This document shows, piece after piece, positions 3,623-31,780 of a DNA stretch of 31,780 nucleotides. Both the position numbers and the translations under genes were made by a program. Position 1 is the first letter of the stretch. Every line of letters starts with the position of its first letter. Under the pieces are notes generated by a model. It was not told where the DNA came from and ran no database searches. It saw only the letters and a list, made by a program, of their open reading frames with translations. Source of the stretch: Rotaria sp. (taxonomy: Eukaryota); assembly GCA_905250055.1 (NCBI GenBank), contig CAJNOF010000018.1:1159575-1191354 (forward strand). Direction: 5' to 3'.

Positions 3623-6295
3623 ACATTCATGTCAATTGATCTGGTACTGTCGAAAAAATAATTTGAAATTTTTCAAAATTTCATTTCTAAACTTGAGTTT
3701 CGAATGCAATTCTACAACAATCCAAGAGGCTATACGAGAAATTTTATTCTAATTGGGCTCCTTCGAATAGTGGAATCATTTTACATACGAAACACAGTTC
3801 AAGGTCATAACAATAAACAAGAGGAATTGATTCAGAAAACTATCAGATTCTTGAGTACATGCAAAACCTATATGAATGGTCTTGACTAGATGTTACTTCA
3901 AGAGCCATTTGAATGTACCAAAAATTAGGATTGTCAAAAGCAACACTGGTATTTTTAGAGTTAGTCGTGAAAGAATTTCTTGAAAGATTAATCCTAAATT
4001 TTTATATTTATTTTTCTGTGCTCAACAGGTACAGTAACAAAACTGAAGAGTTAATACTTTAAGAAGTACAACAAGGAGAAAAAAGCACAAATGAAGAAAT
4101 TGCTAAACTGCTATCGAGTTAAATTTATGTATGTTGTGTTTCAGATATGCAAAAATCTATGGCAGTTATCGAAAAAATTTCGAGTCTTGGAAATAGAACT
4201 GAATAGTAAAAAGAATCCTATCATATTTATAAATAAAAATAGCTGAATGCACATCTCTGATTAGAATAGAATAATAACTTTAAATCATCTTAATATTTAA
4301 AACAAGTCAGTTCAAGTTTTATATCATGATCATTGTCCATCATTTATGAAAAATCATTTTTATCTTTCACATGCTTTCTTTCTTTTTTAATGACAAATCC
4401 TCCATTTTTGTATATTTCCTTATTAAAATTTTATCTTTCACATCATAAAATACCGTACACCGTTTCGATATGCAAAATCATGAAACTCTAATATTTCTCT
4501 TTCCTGGAATAAACTAGCATAATATTTAGGCAACATTTCTTTCCATGATTATATGACTATTAAAATGTATGTTTTGAAACTGATTAAATTTGAATGTGTT
4601 TCGAAAAAGATTGAGCATATTAATTGAAAGACGACTCTCGTTCATCTGCTGTATGCATATTTTGTCATAGCCAATGATTAGATCTCAATAATTGTATTCA
4701 TACATGTTGCTGACATTAATTATTCAGATGATTGTGAATTTCATTTCAACTTCTTTAGAAATTCTATTTAACTAATTGTAAAGTTGCTCGCTCTTATCAG
4801 AAGATGTTTCTTCGGTCAAAATTCGAGTATTAATATGGACTCAAATTCGGATCTACATCTCACTAATTTTCATAACAATTGATGTTATATTACATGCTTT
4901 TTTCAATGAGATCTACAGAAGCCGAACACAATTTTGAGATATCAATTTGTAAAACTTTTCTCTATATATTCTATTTCATTATCATCTAATTGATTAACAA
5001 TAGGATGATGAAGAAATGTCTTTCAAAATACTTGAATTTATGACTCGGTCATGACGTTTCATATTGATATGACAGTATATTCAAAAATAAAAAAATCTCC
5101 TGTCAATTGTTGAATACTATGGATCTAATTAAAATTTGAATTTCATTGATCTAATTCTGCTATAACTCAATTTCTCAAATATTTTGAGTTGTGAATCAAT
5201 TCTTATTACAATAGGCAAAGCTGAAGAAAAGATGTTAAATAAAAGCGTCTGTCTTTTGTACATGTTCTAGTTTTAGTGAGAAGAAATATTAAATTTATTT
5301 TAGAACGAAATCATTTTTTTTTGTTTTTTTTGGGTCTTTTGTAAAAATTCAGTAATTTGATAACGAAATAGTATCATAACCTAAAATTTTCAGGCTATAT
5401 TTCTAGACTTTGTCAAATTAAGAAGACACAAATTATTGACTTTTTGTTATGATTACCAAAAATATACGTACAATAGCAGAATAGTGTTTTTTTATAAACC
5501 AATCCAACGTATCAACTCGATTCTTTTGTTACTGGCATTAAGTTATTTAGATATGGTGATAATATATTTTTCAAAAATAATTTTTCGTTTTGGTAATATT
5601 ATCACGATTAATTGTCGTTCATATTCACTCTATTAAGTACTTGGTTGCAGGTGCATTTTTCTGTGACATGTGGGTAAATGAAGATAGGATCTTCCCTTCA
5701 ATCACATTCACTCATCCTCACACTCAATCACATGTAGATCCACACTATTGTGAAAGAAAACCAATGTGATCACATGATTTTGATGATAATATATCACAAA
5801 TCTAAAGAAATAAGATATTTTATTGTTTACAGAAGAAATATGTTTTATTCGTATAAAGATTAATCTAGTATAAGAAAAATAAATCTTAATAAATAAAAGA
5901 AATATAGAACAGATAAGAAGAACTTTAAAGAATGAATAGAAAACAAAAAAAAAAGGAAAATGAAATTTCGATTGTTGTACTATCAAAGCAGGTTCAACTT
6001 TTCCTAGTCTATCTCTTCTTCTTTTCTTTCCAATCGACACTGTTTTTGTTACTTGAGGCGGGTTTGAAATATTTCAAATGAATACTCACATCAACAACGT
6101 ATTTTCATATACAATTCTCAAGTAACAACTTGACTATTTTCGTTTTGATGTTTGACCAATTTTTATTATGGTCCATATTCAAACAACAAATATCAAACGA
6201 TTTTTTGAATGGATTAAAAGCAGTTCAATTTCTGCTTTTACATACATTTAAATTAGCTTGTTTAATCGATTGAAAATCACAAGCTGGTATATAAT

Positions 6296-6756
6296 ATCTT
6301 CTATTATTTTATTTTAATCAATTTAATGTGATATTAATAATTTATTTAAATTTCAAATTTGTGACGTTTTCGCATCTCGATGAAAGAGTTCATCAGACAT
6401 TAAAATTAAGGCAAATGACATGTAAATAAATACAACGAGAATAACAAAAAATTTTCTTTTCTTTAATATGAGTCATACATTTGATAGTGATACGAAAAAG
6501 GACTCAATCTCTATCTACGTAGCTATTATTATTAGTCTTGTTTTCTATATCACTATCAAATGTATGACTAATATCAAAGAAAAGAACAAAAGAAAATTTT
6601 TTGTTATTCTTATTGTATTTATTTACATGTCATTTGTCTTAATTTTAATGTCTGATGAACTCTTTCATCGAGATACGAAAATGTCACAAATTTGAAATTT
6701 AAATAAATTATTAATATCAAATTAAATTGATTAAAATAAAATAAAATAAAAGAAGA
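6296..6756. repeat. Long near-perfect palindrome of about 460 bp, a foldback-type hairpin element.
   Basis: 6300-6455 is the reverse complement of 6585-6750, and the centre 6455-6585 is itself palindromic (AGTCATACATTTGATAGTGATA / TATCACTATCAAATGTATGACT). Track ORFs 6468-6695(+) and 6619-6816(-) are mirror-image artefacts of the palindrome. Confidence 0.75.
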
Positions 6757-8130
6757 GAATAAAATCATGTCAAATACAGTATATAATATCTCTTTGAGGA
6801 ACCATTTGAAATACAAATTATATATTTTTTATTAGTGATTTCGCCGATTGATACGATAAAGTCCATAATGATAAAGATATTGATGATTCTGTAGCAAATA
6901 TTTTTGATTCATTGAGGTATTATCTTATTCCATTGACCAATTATTAAACAATATTTGAAGTTATTGTCAAAAAATTTCATAGAACCTGAGTTTTCCTACA
7001 CGTTCCATCATCTTTGATTTTTTTGTTGGTTGTTTCTAGAGAGTTGTTTATGTTTGGTACATAAAGTTGTATATCTTCATATCAACTTTTATTTATTTTG
7101 CATCATTTATTGTAAAAAAATAATTCAAAAAGTCTAATGTTGATCGATCTTTTTTTTTTGCTTATTGTTCATTTTCCACTTTATAAGTAATGTTAATATT
7201 ATCTAAATGAAGCTGTAGAATTGGACAATTGAAATATTTCAATACCTTTTATAATTTTTTTTTTGAAACATATGTATCATCTATTTGAGTTACTCTTGAA
7301 TAAATTTCGATTTTTATTATTACTATTTAATTTAATGATTTTTAAATATAACAAAAAATCTAATTATTTTAATAGCGGATCATTTAAATAGTTTACTGAC
7401 CACTCAAAATGATAGCCAAAATTATTTGCGTACAAACATTTGTGATTTTCATAACTAGTCTATAAATTTTCATCAATATAATAGCAGAAAATAAGAAGAA
7501 AAAAGTCTTTTAATTTTTCTTTTTTAATGTAATATTTTCAATATTTTTAAATATAAATAAGCTAGTATATATAGTTTTGAATCCTTTTCTCTTGATTGTT
7601 CGGCATAACTTTTGTTGATATTGATCATTCTATATAATAATCGATGTTCAAATTTCGAGACATCATTTAATAAAATTCTTGAATCTGCTTTTAAGTTAAC
7701 TTTTCGTAAGTCTTCCAATAAAATAAATAATTTAATCTTACTGAAGAATTGAGAAAAGATTCTCATGACTCTATTTTTATATGGACATATATATATCTGT
7801 TATTATCTCACTTATCTACTGTTGATAAATAGCTCTTGTAGAAAAAAGTCAAAGGGCGTACTCTCACATGTATGAATACGATGTACAAAACCTATTTTAT
7901 CATAAATGACGTCGACGAAAGAAAACAAAAACTTACATGCGTAAGCATAGGCATGCTTTATATATAATGACATATTGTATAATTGGATTAATATTTTATT
8001 TCTTGATTAATCTACAATAATGACAAAAATACTATTCAAAAAATAAGATATAATGTCGCCTACGTTGTCTTCGTTCTTTTTTTTTTTGTTTTTTAGTTGA
8101 AGTCATGCTCTATCAACCACTTTAATACTG

Positions 8131-8137
8131 TATAAAT
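8131..8137 (+). promoter_or_regulatory. TATA box (TATAAAT) about 70 bp upstream of the ATG of the WAP-like gene. It is conserved in the inverted paralog.
   Basis: CTGTATAAATCTCATCAATTG is conserved as TATATAAATCTCATTAATT on the minus strand of copy 2. Confidence 0.45.
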
Positions 8138-8206
8138 CTCATCAATTGTACAAAACAAATCGTTTTTTTACATAAGACTATTCAAGTTTGATATTATCAA
8201 AGGATC

Positions 8207-8671
8207 ATGAAAAAGTTAATCTTACATTTATTACTAGCTACTTTGACTATTGTTGCTCTATGTGCAGCTCAAGATGATCGAATTAAAATTGACAAACGAC
8301 GTGCTATACCCATAGCAACTCGAACAGTTCCTCCAATTGTCATTGGTTCAAAGACTTTCTGTTTAAGATTCCCATTTTCACCTAGATGCCATCCATGCAA
8401 ATATAGTCAACCAATCAGAAAGGCTATTTGTGGACAAGGACAAAGCAGATGTGAATTATTAGGTGGTACATGTAAATTTAATCAATATGAGAGAGCTTAT
8501 TGTTGTCCATATGAACATCGAGGTTGCTGTCCTTTGGTAATATATTTTCCTATTATTACTGGACGTCCTCCTATATGCCGTTCTCCACAATGTAGAACAG
8601 ATGCGCAATGCAAAAATTATGAAAAATGTTGTGGAATTTGCCGACAATGTGTCAATGCTACACTCGCATAA
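8207..8671 (+). CDS. Secreted cysteine-rich protein (154 aa, single exon) with an N-terminal signal peptide and a C-terminal WAP-like four-disulfide-core motif.
   Basis: Uninterrupted ORF. The N-terminus is hydrophobic (MKKLILHLLLATLTIVALCAA). There are 16 Cys, including CRTDAQCKNYEKCCGICRQC (the C..D..C....KCC..C..C WAP signature) and CC pairs (YCCPY, GCCPL). A paralog lies at 21843-22301(-). Confidence 0.75.
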   Translation: MKKLILHLLLATLTIVALCAAQDDRIKIDKRRAIPIATRTVPPIVIGSKTFCLRFPFSPRCHPCKYSQPIRKAICGQGQSRCELLGGTCKFNQYERAYCCPYEHRGCCPLVIYFPIITGRPPICRSPQCRTDAQCKNYEKCCGICRQCVNATLA

Positions 8672-8733
8672 TTACGAAGAGTAATATTTATTTTGCCGAC
8701 AAATAAGCTTGAAAACTCTTTTTTTGTGTAACA

Positions 8734-8739
8734 AATAAA
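8734..8739 (+). terminator. AATAAA polyadenylation signal about 65 nt after the stop codon of the WAP-like gene.
   Basis: ACAAATAAACTC is conserved in the copy-2 3'UTR (CAAATAAACTTTG on the minus strand). Confidence 0.4.
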
Positions 8740-9142
8740 CTCAATTCAATTATTTTTACTTCGTGTTTCGTTTCACAAAACAGAATTCTTCTTCTTATGT
8801 AACATTTACAGTAATATTAGGATTGGAATCAAGAAAAACAACGAGATTATCATTTTTTTTTATCTATTGAATAGAGCCGTTTTCGTGAGAAATATCTTTG
8901 GAATAAATAATATATTGTAATTTAATGAATGCCTTTTTATGTCACATCCATTAGAAAAAGAATATTATTTTCGGAAGCTATGTTTTAATACATTGTTTAG
9001 TTCGACAAAAATTCGAATAGCTAAGATTACATTACTGTGTATTTGTAATTTGCTTACCCATTGAAAAATAGTTGTTATTCGTGAAACAAGTTTATTACAA
9101 AATGTATATGTAAAGTACAAAGGACATAAGTGTTGCGAATTG

Positions 9143-9700
9143 TATTTTTCTTATTAAAAATTTAGTTTATAAATGAAATAATTTTATGAAGTTAGATAGG
9201 AATAGTGCAAGAATAGACTCTTCCAATATAATTTATAAAGCTTACAATGAAGATACAAAATGTTGATGGAACATTGGATGCTTCATTGGACCGCTTTCTC
9301 TAGCACCTCGTATTATTTTAAGTTTTCTATTTGAATTTTATATCCAATAATGTTCTATATTAACTAAATGGCGCAACAATCAGGACTATAACTAGATCAT
9401 TTGTATACTTTAGAATTATGTTCGTAACTAGAGAACGTGACCTTTCAAGCATGCAGTGATTTTTATATACAAATGTTATTCAAAAATGTATGGAGAAAAA
9501 TACAAATGATATACGAACACATTTCTCTTTCGTTGTAAACTTCTAATTATATTATAAGTATCTATTCTTATAATATTAATATTTATCGTTGTAACATTAT
9601 TTCAATCACAAACTGGATATTTAATATCAAAAATACGATTCACAATATTTTTGTTATCGGTTGATACGTATACATCATTGATATTTCACATAAAATTGTT
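9143..9700. repeat. Downstream flank segment duplicated near 21000-21500. Sub-blocks A and C are in direct orientation and sub-block B is inverted.
   Basis: A: 9143-9222 approximately equals 21020-21100 (direct; TTTATAAATGAAATAATTTTATGAAGTTAGATAGGAATAG vs TTTGTAAATGAAATAATGTTATGAAGATAGATATAAATAG). B: 9236-9375 approximately equals the reverse complement of 21195-21349. C: 9620-9700 approximately equals 21420-21500 (direct; AATATCAAAAATACGATTCACAA vs AATATCAAAAATATAATTTGCAA). Confidence 0.6.
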
Positions 9701-10188
9701 ATATCAATTCAGTTTTTGTTGAGATATGATCAAGTTTTTTCTTTACTTTTATTTCAGATCTTAGTTATTGTCATTGGGCTGATTCAAATACAAATCTTGC
9801 CATGACCATTCTATGTGTTGCATCGAATAAAACGGAGAAGTAGGTAGACATTGAGTAATAAAAAAAACTCACGAGAGAAGATTCACCAGTGATTCGCACT
9901 GTTTGGACTCATCTTTTGCTGACATGTGGAGCTCATCATATAGATCAAATACCTGAAAGAGTTCGTGCCATTGCTGTATAGTTTCAAAGTTATGAGCGAA
10001 GCAGCTGTTATGATGGATGGTGTCACCCAGAGATGGAACCAGTCTACCGGTACTAAACAGAATGCTGATGATACGCCAGTTTATTAGAGAAAATTCGACC
10101 TACCGTCAAAATATCGATCTACAGACAACAGGCTGAGGCTTGAAATGAAACCTTGTTTCATGGTAAACTCTCTTGCGGGCTATCTTCC

Positions 10189-11876
10189 AGAGACCGTCAC
10201 AGGGCAGGACTGCCCTGATGCCCTGCCCTGTTCTTCAGGGCAGGGCAGGGCGAAACTTTTTGCTCTGATTCAAAGAAAGTTTTTAGCAGAGTGTGAATAA
10301 AATTCAGTTTTTTATTAGAAAACTGATTAAAATGGCAAAATTGTCATTGAATTTTAACCTAATTATTTGATGTTCAATCGATTAAACTTTGTGACTAGAT
10401 CAACACTTGTATATTCCATTCAAATTTATTTTTCTAGTACCTTTTTCTCAAGAAGTTTTTATGCCAGAAGGCTTTCTTGCTCAGCTCAAGAAGTGTATGT
10501 GGATCAAAACAAAGTTTAACCGAGAGATCCAATCAAATGTTGCCTGTCGATCTTAAGAGAAGACTTAATTTATCTCTGTTGAAAAATAGCCGCCTTTCGT
10601 ATAATATCCACGATAAATAAACAATCATTTTATTTTATATTAGAAGTTCGTTCACAAGAGCACAACAAAGGCGAAATAGAAGCTAATCTGATTCCTAATT
10701 TTGTTTTCAAAAATTCTGAAATTTCTTTAGATTTATTAATGTCAAACTTGGTTTTTTGAGTAACAGACAATTGTTTTACAATTAAAATCACTTTACTCCG
10801 ATTAAAGAATTTTTTTCAGCAAAAATCTTAGTATTCTGCAATATTTAGTTTCTAAAACGTCTATCAACGATAAAAGGCTAAAGTTCAAATTTAAATTGAT
10901 TGTTTTTGGATTAAAAATCAATTGTAATAGCACTACTTTAATCGGATTTTGTCAGCTAATAGACAGATTTCATTCGATTTAAAATCTTTTTTCATTTATT
11001 ATAATCGATGACTCAAAATACAGCAATTATAAATTATTATTAGAAATCGATTTCAATTGATGAAAGTTATTTCACCCAAAGTATTATTAAAAAATCTTAC
11101 AATAAAATGAAATCTGTCTTTTTGACTGAAAACTCTGGCTAAAGGCAGTCTAAAATAGTGCTATTTTAACTAACGTTTACGTCAGACACAATCGATTTTA
11201 ATCTAATCTTGAACCGTTTTTCTACATGGACAAATAAGTCTCAGAATATGTTTTTAAATGTTTGGTTCTATATGTGAATGCGAGGAAAAAACTTGGCGAT
11301 GAATGGAAGGCCAGTATTGGTAGGGTTACATGAACTTTCGTAATAGAAAACCATCACGTTTTATTTCATGGAAATGAGACATGAGTTTTATTTATTGCTA
11401 TGTTAGTTTATACAATTGAACAAGCAATTATTATCGTATGTTGAAACATGATATGTCAAAGATCGACTTAATATTACACGTACTGTTTGTCTTAGTAAGG
11501 AGTTCAGAAAAAATGAATTTTTTAAGTTTCACTTTCAAAAATACACCATTCAGCCATATCATTATTGAAAACGGTTGAAAATCGAATAATCTGATTCTAA
11601 TAGTAGTATTTTCATTCAATTTTTAAACATAAGAAGTCCATTAAAATGATATGATTTCTGAAGCTCGTACAACAGTACTTCTTTCTGGTACATGATGGTG
11701 TTTAATTACATAATAACTTTGATTGTGGCACTTTCGAAATAACATAAAGTATGAGTATAAAATTCGAAAGCAATCAAATAATTTTTATGAAGATTTTAGA
11801 TCTTATACTATAGGCTTACTTAGCTTAGACACCCTGCCCTGCCCTCAGGGCAAAAAAACTACCCTATGACGGTCTC
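10189..11876. mobile_element. Non-autonomous DNA-transposon-like element of about 1.69 kb with GC-rich TIRs ((A)GAGACCGTCAyAGGG...CAGGGCAGGGCAGGG) and a probable 11-bp target-site duplication.
   Basis: The left end 10189-10255 (AGAGACCGTCACAGGGCAGG...CAGGGCAGGGCAGGGCG) is the reverse complement of the right end 11831-11876 (CACCCTGCCCTGCCCTCAGGG...CCCTATGACGGTCTC). The flanking direct repeats are GGCTATCTTCC (10178-10188) and GGCTACCTTCG (11877-11887). The AT-rich interior has internal inverted repeats (10907-10985 vs 11110-11175) and no ORF. Confidence 0.7.
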
Positions 11877-12089
11877 GGCTACCTTCGTACCTTCACGCAT
11901 AATGGCATAATGCTTCACAGTTGATAACAATAGTCTCATTGATGGGCATTCTGAGAATTATTTGTTAAATAAATTCGTGTGTGATGAGTGGAACTAGTCT
12001 TGGTTTCAGTTGTTTTTTCATGTGAATACCATCAAAGAGTAGGAAAGTGAAATTTAGATCGGTATAAGGCGGTTTCGACTGATGAGACC

Positions 12090-12165
12090 AGTTTAGACCG
12101 GCCGATCTAAAAATCCAGACCGGTACCGAACCGGATAGGACCGGCCGGTTACCGGTACCGGTTCT
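12090..12165. repeat. GC-rich ACCGG/CCGGT palindromic hairpin, related in motif to the element at 215-540.
   Basis: GGTACCGAACCGGATAGGACCGGCCGGTTACCGGTACCGGTTC is self-complementary. Track ORF 11965-12405(-) runs through it and reads TRGRTGTGNRPVLSGSVP, which is low-complexity and probably not coding. Confidence 0.5.
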
Positions 12166-14801
12166 ACCTCTGGTGTCACCTTCTATGCAGTACTTTTTTG
12201 TTCCTTTTGTAGCTTGACTAGATGATAGCCTTTTGCATAGAGGCTTATAATACATACTTGTTTCAGCTTGCTCGAATGAAAAACGTTTTAAGAAATATGA
12301 TTCAGTTACATTATGGAAAATAGAAACCATTATTGAATAGATGGTAGCACTATCTATCATAGCAGATATTTCGCTCATAACTTGGAAACTGTGCAACAAT
12401 GGCACGAACCCTGTAAGGCATTTGACCTATATAATGGGTCCCACATACCAACCAAAGATGAACCCAAACGATGTGAATCACTTGGAAATGTTCCTCGTTA
12501 GACTATGAAAGAATACAATGAGAAGCAATAAATCACTAAACCATATACATATGAAAAGAAGAGATAAAGAATAGAGCTATTAAGAATCTTATAAGTTCTA
12601 TTTAATGAATGAGTGAGTGACAGATATATCCAGAATGAATAATTTTTCTGTTCTCTCTTACACCATTCACTGAGTTTCTCTTTCAACTATAGGAACACAA
12701 ATGTATTTTGATCGAATGGTTATTTAACTTGTTGTAATAAAAGAACTCGGACATTTCAATAACTAATTACATCTTTCTGCGTAGTTTATTGACAATCAAA
12801 CAGCTCGAATCTTGTCGTCATTCCTTTCTTATTTTCATGAAATGAATCATATTTTATATTTTTCTTAACAAACTAAACTCATGACATTGCCTCTATCATA
12901 ATATACTCTGTCATCAATTTAGTGATGCATTAAATAATTGACAATAACAAATTCAGTCCAACATGAAAGCTCACAAATGCTTATATTATCAAGAAATTTC
13001 TATTTACTTTCAAAATATTTTCCAAGTCGCTGTATGTTATAAATGAACGCGAAAACTATTAACTATTTGCTGTTGCGCATAAATGCAAGATAATATTACA
13101 TGTATAAAAATAAATTTTTTTTTAAATATCTTTTTAAACAAAACATATGAGACTATAGATGACTGTTTTTCTTGTAAATAATGGATGACTTATAATCCAT
13201 GACAGGACTTTGAATTTTATTTTTTCATCGTCTAATACATTTCATTAAAAAACAATATATATCCACAAGATGTAGCGTACAAAGTTCTCGACCGTACGAA
13301 AACTGATTACAAGGAATTTTAATTTTTTTTGAAAACAATTACAATAAGTTTTGCTGTATATTTTGAAATTATTTTTACTGCATCAACCCGATAAAACAAA
13401 TATGAAAATAATAGATTATTTTTAATGGTTTTTACCATTTTTATCAGAATGTATAAAACATATTTTCAGTATGTTTCAAGAGATTTTATTGAATTTAAAT
13501 TTTATTTACTTATTCAATGATTATGAATAACAAAAAATATTTTCCTTGTAATTGTGTTAATTGTGAAAAGTTAGTATTTAAATGAAGTTTTTGTCAAGAT
13601 TTTTCATTTTACTTGTTAATTGAATTCCTTTTTTTTTTGTTGTTTCGTATATTTAAGCTTATATTTCTTATATTTGAATAAAAACTTATCTAATTCATTC
13701 ATTGATTTTATGATGAAATTTCTCTAATACAAGTTTAGTTTTTTCTTTAATTTAGGTTATATTTTTTCACAAAAGTATACTTGAAATCATGCGTTTGTCT
13801 TTGATATAAGATAAAGAAGAAAAAATGTTATTTTGACATCATATTTCAATATTTTTTATTTTGTTGAAACTTTTATTTTGCTATTTTGATTTAAATTTAA
13901 ATCAAATAATTCTATTCAATTTTTTGTTTCCATATTCATACGTATTGGTGTGAACGGAGCCGACGGATTCTGATGAACTGCAAATCCTTGATGTAAGGCT
14001 TGTGAAGGCGAAACCTCAGTGAGCATGTTCGATAACATGTGCCTAATATCCTCGCTTTTACCAGACCTCTAAAATTCAAGTGTAAAATATTCTCAAATCG
14101 ATCTAAATCGATCATGATAGCTTTACATCGAACATATTTTTACTTAATATTAAACTAAGTATTTTATGACATGATTGTGCAACAATTTCAGAATAGTATT
14201 CTTGTATATGGGATCCCGAAGTAAGTACGTATATTTGAATTTGAGATAACTACTTAAATAGAACCTCAACATAAACTTCTCATCCTTTTGAATACTAAAA
14301 TTTGCATTCAAATATAGAATATGTTAATAAGTGTGATATTGTGTTGTTCTGTTTATTGTTCGAATCTCAAAACTGTACAGCAAATTCAATTGTCTCATCA
14401 AATGTTTATTCTAATTTAGTATAAGTCACTCTTCTTTTCGGTCTTCAGATTCTACTATGAATGCAAGTGAAGATATAGTGAACAGACAGAGATGGCAATG
14501 CGACTGAAGTGGACATCTTCACCAAACATCTTCAATCTCAATTCTAAAGCAACACAAATGCCTTGTCTCCTTTAGTTCTTGTGCTTATGTTAGATGGTAT
14601 GTGTCAATGTCACTTATTTGCTTTAATAGCATGCACAAAAAAGCTTTTGATTGTAAAAAAACAGTAGAATAAAGAGAAGACCATTGACGATGATATTTAT
14701 GTTACATATCAAACTTAACGAAATTTTTCATTATCAAGAAAATGTAAATTAATTATCCAACTAATAAATACAATGAAGTGAAAAACTTTTTTCTTAGATA
14801 T

Positions 14802-18738: not shown

Positions 18739-19725
18739 ATGGTAGACTTTCTACTAGTCAATATCGTTTGGCTTCTTCATTTTGTCATATGTTTCTACAT
18801 TATCCGTCCTATTCGTCACATTCTAATTCGAGCCATTTTGACTTGCGTACCATGTATATTACTGACTGATATTTGCACACGTAATCTTCCTCCACATCAT
18901 ATTTTTTCTGTCTTTACCATTGCAATATATTGGATGGTATCGATTCGTCTCTTTCATTTAGTCGTTCTTACACCTGACACGTTTCCAACATTTTCTTCCT
19001 TTACTGCAAAATGTCTATGGATTCTCTTACCAGTTATACCTTGTCAATCGAAAGAGAAGCAATGGCCTATCATCTTTTATTTGATTTTTGGTGTAGTAAA
19101 ATTTATACTTAATCGTTGGTTACATAGATGGTTACTGATATGTGAATCAAATGATAGTTATATGAGAGTATTTATTTATTTCTTATCAATATTAACATTT
19201 TCATATGTAGTCGATATTGAGACGGTTCTTGTGCGAATAATCACTCGAGATAAATATACACTTCAATCACTTAACAATTTTCCATTCTTCTCTCAATCAT
19301 TACGTGAATTTTGGGGTCGACGATACAATCGGATCATCAGTACAATTTTCAATGAATCAATTTTTCGGCCTCTCAGTTTATTTATACCTTCTCGATCAAT
19401 CGTATCTTTATTAATATTCATTATCAGTGGTCTTTTTCATGTACATATTGTCTTTATTGTTTTCAATGAGCCTTCATCGGCTTTGCCTACATTTGCCTGT
19501 TTCTTTCTGAATGGTATTGCTTGTTGCATAGAAGCACATCTTGCAATTAAGTTACCACCATTACTTGGATGGTTGGTAACACATAGTGTCCTTTTTGTAA
19601 CAGCACCAATGTGTCTTGGAACGTTTGCACGAGACAAATCTGTATTTTTTGGTCTAGATGGTCTTTCAACGTATGGTGATCAATGGATTTCAAAATTGCC
19701 TATGCCCAAGAGTTGTCCGAAATAA
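18739..19725 (+). CDS. Intronless multi-pass membrane protein (328 aa) with MBOAT_2 / wax-synthase-like acyltransferase motifs.
   Basis: Uninterrupted ORF with many hydrophobic segments. It contains SLREFWGRRYN (compare the wax-synthase / MBOAT_2 motif S..FWGRRWN) followed about 45 aa later by IISGLFHVH (compare the conserved vSGllHE histidine motif). Confidence 0.55.
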   Translation: MVDFLLVNIVWLLHFVICFYIIRPIRHILIRAILTCVPCILLTDICTRNLPPHHIFSVFTIAIYWMVSIRLFHLVVLTPDTFPTFSSFTAKCLWILLPVIPCQSKEKQWPIIFYLIFGVVKFILNRWLHRWLLICESNDSYMRVFIYFLSILTFSYVVDIETVLVRIITRDKYTLQSLNNFPFFSQSLREFWGRRYNRIISTIFNESIFRPLSLFIPSRSIVSLLIFIISGLFHVHIVFIVFNEPSSALPTFACFFLNGIACCIEAHLAIKLPPLLGWLVTHSVLFVTAPMCLGTFARDKSVFFGLDGLSTYGDQWISKLPMPKSCPK

Positions 19726-21842: not shown

Positions 21843-22301
21843 TTAATAGACGGCTGGAACACATTTTCGGCAAATTCCACAACATTTTTCATAAGGTTTG
21901 CATGATGCATCTGTTTGACATCGATGACAGAATGGACTAGGACGTGGAAAGATAATAGTTCGGTATTCTACTGTTGGACAACAACCTCGATGTTCCCTTG
22001 GACAACAATAAGCTATGCCGTATTGATTAAATTTACATGTACCACCTAATGCTTCACATCTTCTTTGTCCTTGTCCACAAGTAACACCTATAATTGGTGA
22101 GCCATATGTGCATGGATTACATTTGGTTGATGATGGAAATTGTAAACAGTACTTAATTGGATCAAAGATAATTGGAGGAACCGTTCGAATTGGTATTAGT
22201 ACAGTACGTGATTTGTCAATGTCAACAGAATCACCTGGAATTGCATGTAAGCCAACAATAGCCAAAGTTGTTAATAATAAGCGTAAGATTAACTTGTTCA
22301 T
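21843..22301 (-). CDS. Secreted cysteine-rich protein paralog (152 aa, single exon) with signal peptide and WAP-like four-disulfide-core motif.
   Basis: MNKLILRLLLTTLAIVGLHA signal peptide. The Cys framework is conserved with the 8207-8671 product (CGQGQRRCEALGGTCKFNQYGIAYCCPREHRGCCP...CQTDASCKPYEKCCGICRKC). I estimate about 65% amino-acid identity. Confidence 0.75.
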   Translation of the reverse strand: MNKLILRLLLTTLAIVGLHAIPGDSVDIDKSRTVLIPIRTVPPIIFDPIKYCLQFPSSTKCNPCTYGSPIIGVTCGQGQRRCEALGGTCKFNQYGIAYCCPREHRGCCPTVEYRTIIFPRPSPFCHRCQTDASCKPYEKCCGICRKCVPAVY

Positions 22302-31456: not shown

Positions 31457-31780
31457 CTTGTGAATGACTAGTCGATGAATTACTCGTTGTGTATTTGGAT
31501 GTTGTAGTTGTTGTACTAGAAATTGTTGTTATTTTAGTTGTAGTTGTCGAAGTTGTTGTTGATGCTGTTATTGTTGTTGCTGATGTTGATGTTGTTGTAA
31601 TTGATGCTGTTGTAGTTGATGTTGTTATTATTGTTGTAGTTGATGTTGTTGTGGCTGATGTTGTTGTAGTTGATGTTGTAGTTGTTGAGGTTTTTGTTGT
31701 TGATGTTGTTGTTAGTGGTGTTGTCGTTGTTGATGTTGTTGTTGTTGATATTGTTGTTAGTGTTGCTGTTGATGTTGTTG
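31457..31780 (-). CDS. Thr/Ser-rich mucin-like coding exon, truncated by the window end. It is possibly the extracellular N-terminal region of the EGF/TM gene.
   Basis: On the minus strand the ACA/ACT/TCA frame is open across the entire repeat (…TTSTATLTTISTTTSTTTTPLTTTSTTKTSTTTTSTTTTSATT…TTTSKYTTSNSSTSHSQ). The other two frames hit stops. It ends with a canonical donor CAAG|GTAAGT (1451-1456 on the + strand reads ACTTAC). Confidence 0.45.
31480..31780. repeat. Imperfect tandem repeat of GTTGTTGATGTTGTTGTAGTTGAT-like units (+ strand), equivalent to Thr codons ACA/ACT on the minus strand.
   Basis: Visible periodic GTTGTTGATG / GTAGTTGATG units to the window end. Confidence 0.8.

Follow-up and report, generated by a model that had tools for sequence, protein, structure and literature searches.

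We analysed a 31,780-nucleotide stretch of the genome of the bdelloid rotifer Rotaria sp. (NCBI GenBank assembly GCA_905250055.1, contig CAJNOF010000018.1, positions 1,159,575 to 1,191,354 of the forward strand), here called the window, which contains a 1.7-kb element with GC-rich, inverted ends. The window is AT-rich (22-36% GC in 1-kb windows) and carries split genes of eukaryotic type for three proteins: one with ankyrin repeats, one MBOAT-like and one resembling the major vault protein. Scanned over its full length, it yielded no Rfam match at the gathering threshold and no tRNA, and exact-protein look-ups of the open reading frames (ORFs) at 18739-19725 and 21843-22301 and of a 62-residue ORF within the element returned no record. 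The element occupies positions 10188-11876/8 and is 1689-1691 bp long, and its ends form GC-rich islands. As described below, it is almost certainly a non-autonomous class II (cut-and-paste) DNA transposon with terminal inverted repeats (TIRs), and a real but ordinary one. The element and its target-site duplication (TSD) comprise the following parts.

10178..10187, left copy of the TSD: GGCTATCTTC in a 10-bp reading; in an 8-bp reading only 10180-10187, CTATCTTC.
10188..10206, + strand, left TIR (A-type end): CAGAGACCGTCACAGGGCA; the same 19-mer starts every relative, and the repeat has an inverted match to 11859-11876.
10200..10251, left subterminal cluster: seven CAGGGC/GCCCTG hexamers, four forward and three reverse.
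10252..11830, interior: AT-rich and non-coding, with no similarity to the interiors of the relatives.
11831..11858, right subterminal region (B-type end): CCCTGCCCTGCCCTCAGGGC, then A7, which reads as T7 going inward from the end.
11859..11878, - strand, right TIR: CCGAGACCGTCATAGGGTAG when read inward; it ends at 11876 under the 10-bp reading of the TSD.
11877..11886, right copy of the TSD: GGCTACCTTC in a 10-bp reading; in an 8-bp reading only 11879-11886, CTACCTTC.

An earlier reading made from the sequence alone (the sequence-only reading) had described inverted termini, short repeats inward of each terminus, and a non-coding interior with inverted repeats of its own, and all of these features were recovered at the positions it gave. 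The termini of the element are CAGAGACCGTCACAGGGCA and ccGAGACCGTCAtAGGGtA. Their shared core, GAGACCGTCAYAGGG, occurs exactly twice in the 31.8 kb, in inverted orientation at 10190-10204 (+) and 11862-11876 (-), and was found 0 times in 100 dinucleotide-preserving shuffles of the window. In the window copy, a repeat finder extended the inverted arms to 18 nt with 89% identity (16/18 bases matching) and revealed a second inverted pair just inside them, a perfect 14-nt match between AGGGCAGGGCAGGG and CCCTGCCCTGCCCT. The motif CAGGGCAGGG, with at most one mismatch, occurs six times, always within 65 bp of an element end, where 0.08 occurrences would be expected. Similarly, nine of the 11 CAGGGC matches in the window lie within the two 65-bp end regions (1.05 expected). 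The left hexamer cluster is presumed to consist of transposase-binding repeats. The longest ORF in the interior is only 62 residues, and stop codons are dense in all six frames. The interior also contains an imperfect palindrome at 10869-11222, whose predicted DNA fold was better than that of every shuffle (z-score of -3.55). Miniature inverted-repeat transposable elements (MITEs) are typically shorter than 800 bp and present in high copy number, a definition that the window copy, at 1689-1691 bp, does not fit; the accurate term is non-autonomous element.

To place the element among conspecific sequences, we used contigs reached by exact-protein look-up of a 154-residue Cys-rich ORF (8207-8671). 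The look-up identified seven contigs from NCBI assemblies GCA_9053315xx/9053322xx-23xx/905250075, all from Rotaria sp. 'Silwood-1', which were assigned to samples according to the tables of Nowell et al. 2021 (PMC7943196): L001/L126 (RSIL806 assembly), L002 (RSIL806 maximum-haplotig), L003 (10x maximum-haplotig), L004 (RSIL801 maximum-haplotig), L129 (RSIL801 assembly) and L005 (RSIL802 maximum-haplotig). Five of these contigs (L001-L004 and L129) lacked exactly 10188..11876 and kept a single GGCTACCTTC at the site. In BLAST comparisons, L001-L004 aligned to window position 10187 and restarted at 11877, with the two alignments overlapping by 10 bp in the subject, and L129 showed a short gene spacing equal to that of the empty contigs. 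The filled allele reads ...CTCTTGCG GGCTATCTTC / CAGAGACC...GGTCTC / GGCTACCTTC GTACC..., and the empty allele reads ...CTCTTGTG GGCTACCTTC GTACC..., without a footprint. Five precise empty sites with a single GGCTACCTTC indicate that the element is a true insertion. The sequence-only reading had made its case depend on empty-site alleles and on other copies; the former thus exist in five contigs of Rotaria sp. 'Silwood-1'. The filled left junction was also present in L005, a contig that breaks off 543 bp inside the element.

In a multiple alignment, the flanks fell into two haplotypes about 1.3% apart. Haplotype A, represented by the window and L005, is filled, while haplotype B, represented by L001, L002 and L003, is empty. 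By sample, RSIL802 is filled and RSIL801 and the 10x assembly are empty; RSIL801, RSIL802 and the 10x sample derive from one clonal laboratory line (PMC7943196). Since filled and empty states occur within one clonal line, the insertion is hemizygous: it is intergenic, lies in one Rotaria sp. 'Silwood-1' haplotype and is absent from the homologous haplotype. We also observed that the two RSIL801 contigs (L004 and L129) carried the empty haplotype B on the left of the site and up to 11934, and haplotype A variants from 12136. Either the assembly changed phase at the heterozygous insertion, or this is a genuine tract of recombination or gene conversion. Additionally, three haplotype differences, at 10167, 10176 and 10183, the last within the TSD, fall within the 17 bp just left of the insertion. 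Differences average about one per 75 bp in the region, and to the right of the insertion the nearest lies 58 bp away. This cluster could be due to chance or to mutation linked to the insertion.

Relatives of the element were identified in metagenome contigs by a 15-mer scan. Among the matches listed, most were chance matches in GC-rich bacterial contigs, and the true relatives were the AT-rich contigs L008, L016 and L020, which contained CAGAGACCGTCACAGGGCA and dense GCCCTG/CAGGGC repeats. L016 was extended by a search with a flanking amidohydrolase exon, which yielded L130, L131 and L133. L130 and L131 represent the same locus as L016, and L131 contains a whole copy of 2079 bp (positions 3976-6054), whose far end reads ...GCCCTGATAACGGTCTCTG and was also recorded as ...ACGGTCTCTG. 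This copy is likewise non-coding; its longest ORF is 126 residues, and no Pfam domain was listed for that ORF. L133 is a homologous locus with 91% identity to L131, and the alignment between the two stops exactly one base before CAGAG. This revealed a second empty site, in which L133 reads ...CAGATAAAT/ATAACTTTG and the filled L131 reads ...CAGATGAAT/CAGAGACC. Searches with spurious predicted ORFs inside the L131 copy identified L136, L137, L138 and L139, each with a different flank leading into the identical terminus. In total, CAGAGACCGTCACAGGGCA followed by GCCCTG/CAGGGC repeats was found at seven further loci in peat-moss metagenome contigs, with an identical 19-bp terminus and different flanks, so that the other copies which the sequence-only reading had called for are present at independent loci.

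Comparison of these copies also revealed how the family has spread. L136, L137 and L139 share one common internal-deletion junction at an 8-bp microhomology, CCTCCCAC, and L020 carries a different internal deletion. Because the junction is common to the three contigs and their flanks differ, a deleted, non-coding derivative transposed to at least three sites, which is direct evidence of mobilisation in trans. The non-autonomous nature of the element, as claimed by the sequence-only reading, is therefore supported by the empty sites, the other loci, the lack of coding capacity and the internal-deletion derivatives.

An alignment of ten ends gave the consensus terminus CAGAGACCGTCACAGGGCA and sorted the ends consistently into two types. 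A-type ends run on as ...GGGCAGGRCTGCCCTG... and are represented by the window left end, L008 and L131 end B. B-type ends run on as ...GGGCAC-T6-7-(C)TGCCCTG... and are represented by the window right end, L131 end A, L020 and L136-L139; the layout of the window right end, in which the TIR is followed by T7 and GCCCTG, recurs in each of the latter. The Rotaria copy and the metagenome copies have the same end polarity, and their interiors are unrelated except for about 36 nt of subterminal similarity (L131). The hexamer count in the first 220 bp ranged from 2 to 17 across the ends, with variable positions. By this alignment, the terminus and the motif are conserved in the family and the spacing is not, a pattern that would be expected, by analogy with the organisation of Ac and Hermes, for a terminal cleavage site and an array of transposase-binding sites. 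The comparison places the element in a multi-locus family whose members share only CAGAGACCGTCACAGGGCA, the asymmetry of the two ends and the dense subterminal CAGGGC/GCCCTG repeats.

Two of the metagenome datasets from which the relatives come (ERZ12298644 and 3300047171) are part of a published Sphagnum-microbiome metagenome series (PMC9584203). The 19-mer terminus had 0 matches in GTDB genomes and 0 in IMG/VR, and a full-text literature search with the terminal sequences returned unrelated primer matches only. The contigs are AT-rich, and L133 contains an intron-split, bacterial-type amidohydrolase gene; these features are consistent with, but not proof of, a bdelloid origin. We also observed that the L131 copy interrupts the intron-containing, bacterial-type amidohydrolase gene, and that the downstream exons present in L133 are missing from L131 and replaced by unrelated sequence, so that the right flank of L131 is not collinear with L133. 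This flank represents either a chimeric metagenome join across the repeat or a rearrangement, possibly associated with the transposon.

The length of the TSD could then be considered in light of the family terminus. The sequence-only reading had proposed an 11-bp direct repeat, GGCTATCTTCC (10178-10188) and GGCTACCTTCG (11877-11887), of which 9/11 positions match. A duplication is present, but its length is 8-10 bp rather than 11 bp, as indicated by the empty sites and the CAGAG tip; the 11-bp version was rejected as it requires two mismatches and strips the conserved C from that tip. Since the family terminus is CAGAG, base 10188 (C) counts as part of the element, and on this sequence comparison the duplication is at most 10 bp. 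Taken literally, the verified empty site gives a duplication of 10 bp, GGCTAYCTTC, with 9/10 identity, the difference being T10183 in the left copy, which departs from both the right copy and the empty haplotype. The right end of the window copy reads ...GGTCTCGG, whereas the family carries CA...TG tips at both ends. Compared with the family consensus, the right TIR shows A>C at position 2, C>T at position 13 and GGGCAC>GGGTAG. Three readings of the TSD fit these data, which come from a single copy: 8 bp with a T>G substitution, 9 bp with a 1-nt deletion and 10 bp with a 2-nt truncation. The data are most simply explained by an 8-bp TSD (CTAYCTTC) with T>G at the penultimate base of the right tip, which is preferred because the right TIR departs from the consensus at three more positions and the left copy of the TSD is mutated too.

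As no transposase was found, we infer the superfamily. The element most likely belongs to hAT (hobo/Ac-like), with the 8-bp duplication CTAYCTTC, an assignment drawn from the ends to which we give a probability of about 0.55. The defining features of hAT elements are YARNG tips and TSDs of 8 bp (PMC3014272). CAGAG fits YARNG and is present at nine of the ten ends, the window right end reading CCGAG. The first 12 nt of the terminus, CAGAGACCGTCA, showed 9/12 identity to the hobo end CAGAGAACTGCA (PMC9682801), which is a resemblance and not a homology test, and likewise 9/12 identity to the Hermes end CAGAGAACAACA (PMC3030943) and to the TIR of a hobo-clade non-autonomous element from the anole, CAGAGSCGGYCC (PMC3014272). 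Thus, although the sequence-only reading found that the ends matched no family it could name, they resemble the CAGAGA ends of hobo- and Hermes-like hAT elements; the family itself is apparently unnamed, with distinctive (CAGGG)n-rich ends. In the available passages of the published bdelloid RepeatMasker tables, hAT is the most frequent of the six DNA-transposon superfamily names looked for, and MuDR, Merlin and Zisupton are also present. A protein search with a hAT dimerisation-domain consensus, which does find Hermes in the PDB (1e-20), returned nine short unrelated fragments; this search was word-indexed and did not reach rotifer hAT proteins. The multiple short subterminal repeats of the element, in both orientations, resemble those reportedly present in Ac and Hermes, in work ascribed to Kunze and Starlinger in 1989 and to Hickman et al. 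in 2014.

Several observations weigh against the hAT assignment. The sole copy with both flanks verified shows a literal 10-bp duplication, and an 8-bp TSD requires T>G at the penultimate base of its right end. The complete copy in L131 has no TSD, as its flanks, AGATGAAT and GTCGGAGA, do not match. No transposase and no autonomous copy were found for these termini. Ten flanks follow the target consensus of the Ac/hobo clade, nTnnnnAn, only weakly: 4/10 have T at position 2 and 6/10 have A at position 7, which is indistinguishable from the AT-rich background. Finally, the similarity to the hobo and Hermes TIRs is a 12-nt resemblance and involves no homology test.

The alternatives differ mainly in what they make of the duplication and the tips. 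Other superfamilies with 8-bp TSDs, such as P, Zisupton or Novosib, are unlikely sources of the element, although the P superfamily, with CANRG tips and TSDs of 7-8 bp, would accommodate CAGAG as well. In that case, a THAP-domain transposase would read a GGGCA core: the THAP1 site is TxxGGGCA, and the repeat unit xCAGGGCA contains this core, which is a lead only. One Zisupton family is annotated in a bdelloid in the available repeat-table passages. However, the sole P entry in those passages is one 40-bp match (P-2_LG), neither a THAP nor a KDZ transposase was tied to these ends, and the P-element end CATGATGAAATAACATAAGG (PMC9682801) has no similarity to the terminus of the element. If, instead, the 10-bp GGCTAYCTTC were the true TSD and the right end lacked its last two bases, the element would be a non-autonomous Mutator-like element (MULE), which we consider rather unlikely. 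This explanation takes the 10-bp duplication at the verified empty site (9/10 identical) literally, and MuDR families are annotated in bdelloid genomes according to the same passages, but the CA...TG tips found at both ends in the family mean that the window copy would need an aberrant right end truncated by 2 nt. As the right TIR already has four substitutions compared with the consensus, a single tip substitution is simpler; moreover, CAGAG tips and a 19-bp TIR are, to our knowledge, not typical of MULEs.

It is quite improbable that the family is moved by an unconventional, non-hAT transposase, either of the THAP type or with an undescribed DNA-binding module that reads G-rich (CAGGG)n arrays, belonging to a lineage with 9-10-bp TSDs and possibly passing horizontally among moss- and water-dwelling micro-invertebrates. 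If this were true, horizontal movement would explain why the identical 19-bp terminus occurs in Rotaria and in organisms of the Sphagnum metagenomes, which come from different studies, despite unrelated interiors. An explanation without any mobile element, in which the locus is a haplotype-specific indel, is hardly credible. A single deletion between two 10-bp repeats in the other haplotype would likewise leave one repeat copy, and filler-DNA insertion would be another route to such an indel, but the inverted ends, the two-end asymmetry and the motif recur at seven other loci with unrelated flanks, and a second empty site is present. The multi-locus family effectively refutes this explanation.

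In the mechanism that we propose, a transposase encoded elsewhere would bind the CAGGGC repeats through a sequence-specific N-terminal domain, pair both ends and cut at the CAGAG/CTCTG tips. Integration would proceed by a staggered cut of the target, and repair would turn the stagger into the flanking duplication. Under the hAT assignment, the right tip of the window copy would have changed from CTCTG to CTCGG, a substitution that may have immobilised the copy. Since both its right tip and its right TIR are degraded, this copy has probably lost its mobility.

Other repeats were also found in the window. A second hemizygous insertion, about 630 bp long, lies in the same haplotype at 1060-1689. 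It is a foldback-like element whose 149-nt TIRs are 92% identical, and it is absent from L001 and L003. Its filled site reads CTGTTC-TAA-CGAGGGAAG...CTTCCCTCG-TAA-GTATAAC and its empty site reads CTGTTCTAAGTATAAC; the 3-bp TAA duplication is the TSD type of PIF/Harbinger-like MITEs. A 441-bp near-perfect palindrome at 6304-6744 (88.5% self-complementary) and a 162-bp inverted-repeat pair at 3052-3213/3455-3615 (84%) may be further foldback or MITE-like elements. An inverted segmental duplication with about 76% identity connects 7228-9871 with 23278-20789, and each arm contains a paralogous ORF for a Cys-rich secreted protein of 152-154 residues (8207-8671, + strand; 21843-22301, - strand). The transposon itself is bracketed by a 152-bp inverted repeat (9871-10022 and 12348-12501, 78%). 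As this repeat is also present in the empty haplotypes, the transposon landed in an older inverted-repeat structure, be it a further TIR element or a gene fragment duplicated in inverted orientation. In the RSIL806 contig L001 (11611-12193, corresponding to window 9233-9815), about 583 bp of the sequence that immediately precedes the insertion site is tandemly duplicated; the window and the other contigs do not have this duplication. Downstream, a GC-rich cluster at 12060-12170 contains CCGG/GGTACC palindromes (...GACCGGCCGATCT...CCGGTACCGAACCGGATAGGACCGGCCGGTTACCGGTACCGG...) and a CTGATGAG string, with no Rfam match at the gathering threshold; a CUGAUGAG-like string at about 12090 was considered and rejected as a recognised hammerhead, the Rfam gathering scan being empty. 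An imperfect (TTG)n-based minisatellite extends from 31500 to the end of the window at 31780.

Bdelloid rotifers are the textbook ancient asexuals, and transposon activity in them bears on the theory of sex and selfish DNA. A population survey of the same assemblies tested insertion polymorphism only for long terminal repeat (LTR) retrotransposons (PMC7943196). The present locus adds a hemizygous DNA-transposon insertion to this LTR-only picture, and, together with the MITE at 1060-1689, it shows that class II elements, too, inserted after the divergence of the two haplotypes. The very recognisable GC-rich ends would make the family a convenient marker in genome-wide scans for presence or absence. 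The locus is of some local value for the question of transposon activity in asexual bdelloids; otherwise, the element is ordinary and would not surprise a specialist.

We compared the Rotaria family with the closest known systems. Similarity was evident with hobo of Drosophila and Hermes of Musca, which share the CAGAGA tip and 9/12 of the first 12 nt, a short TIR (about 12-19 bp), short subterminal repeats in both orientations and internal-deletion derivatives mobilised in trans; an 8-bp TSD would also be compatible. In contrast to these elements, the Rotaria family has the repeat CAGGGC, often in (CAGGG)n runs, ends whose first 150 bp are 44-65% GC, compared with about 30% in the genome, a literal 10-bp duplication in the one verifiable copy, a bdelloid rotifer host and no linked hAT transposase. 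MULEs likewise have TIRs, along with TSDs of 9-11 bp and many non-autonomous forms, and MuDR is annotated in bdelloids, but the Rotaria family differs in its CAGAG/CTCTG tips and short TIR, and a 10-bp TSD would require a truncated right end. In Ac of maize, subterminal AAACGG hexamers are the transposase-binding sites. The Ac/Ds system resembles the Rotaria family in its non-coding, Ds-like derivatives, asymmetric ends and many subterminal hexamers, although the hexamer and the TIR differ (Ac TIR CAGGGATGAAA) and the host of Ac is a plant. For the hobo_AC and hAT-N6/7/8_AC elements of Anolis, copies number in the hundreds to thousands and patterns of 8-bp TSDs are documented (PMC3014272). Their TIR, CAGAGSCGGYCC, matches the Rotaria terminus at 9/12 positions, and hAT-N6/7/8_AC share only TIR and TSD features with their master element, which they outnumber (PMC3014272).

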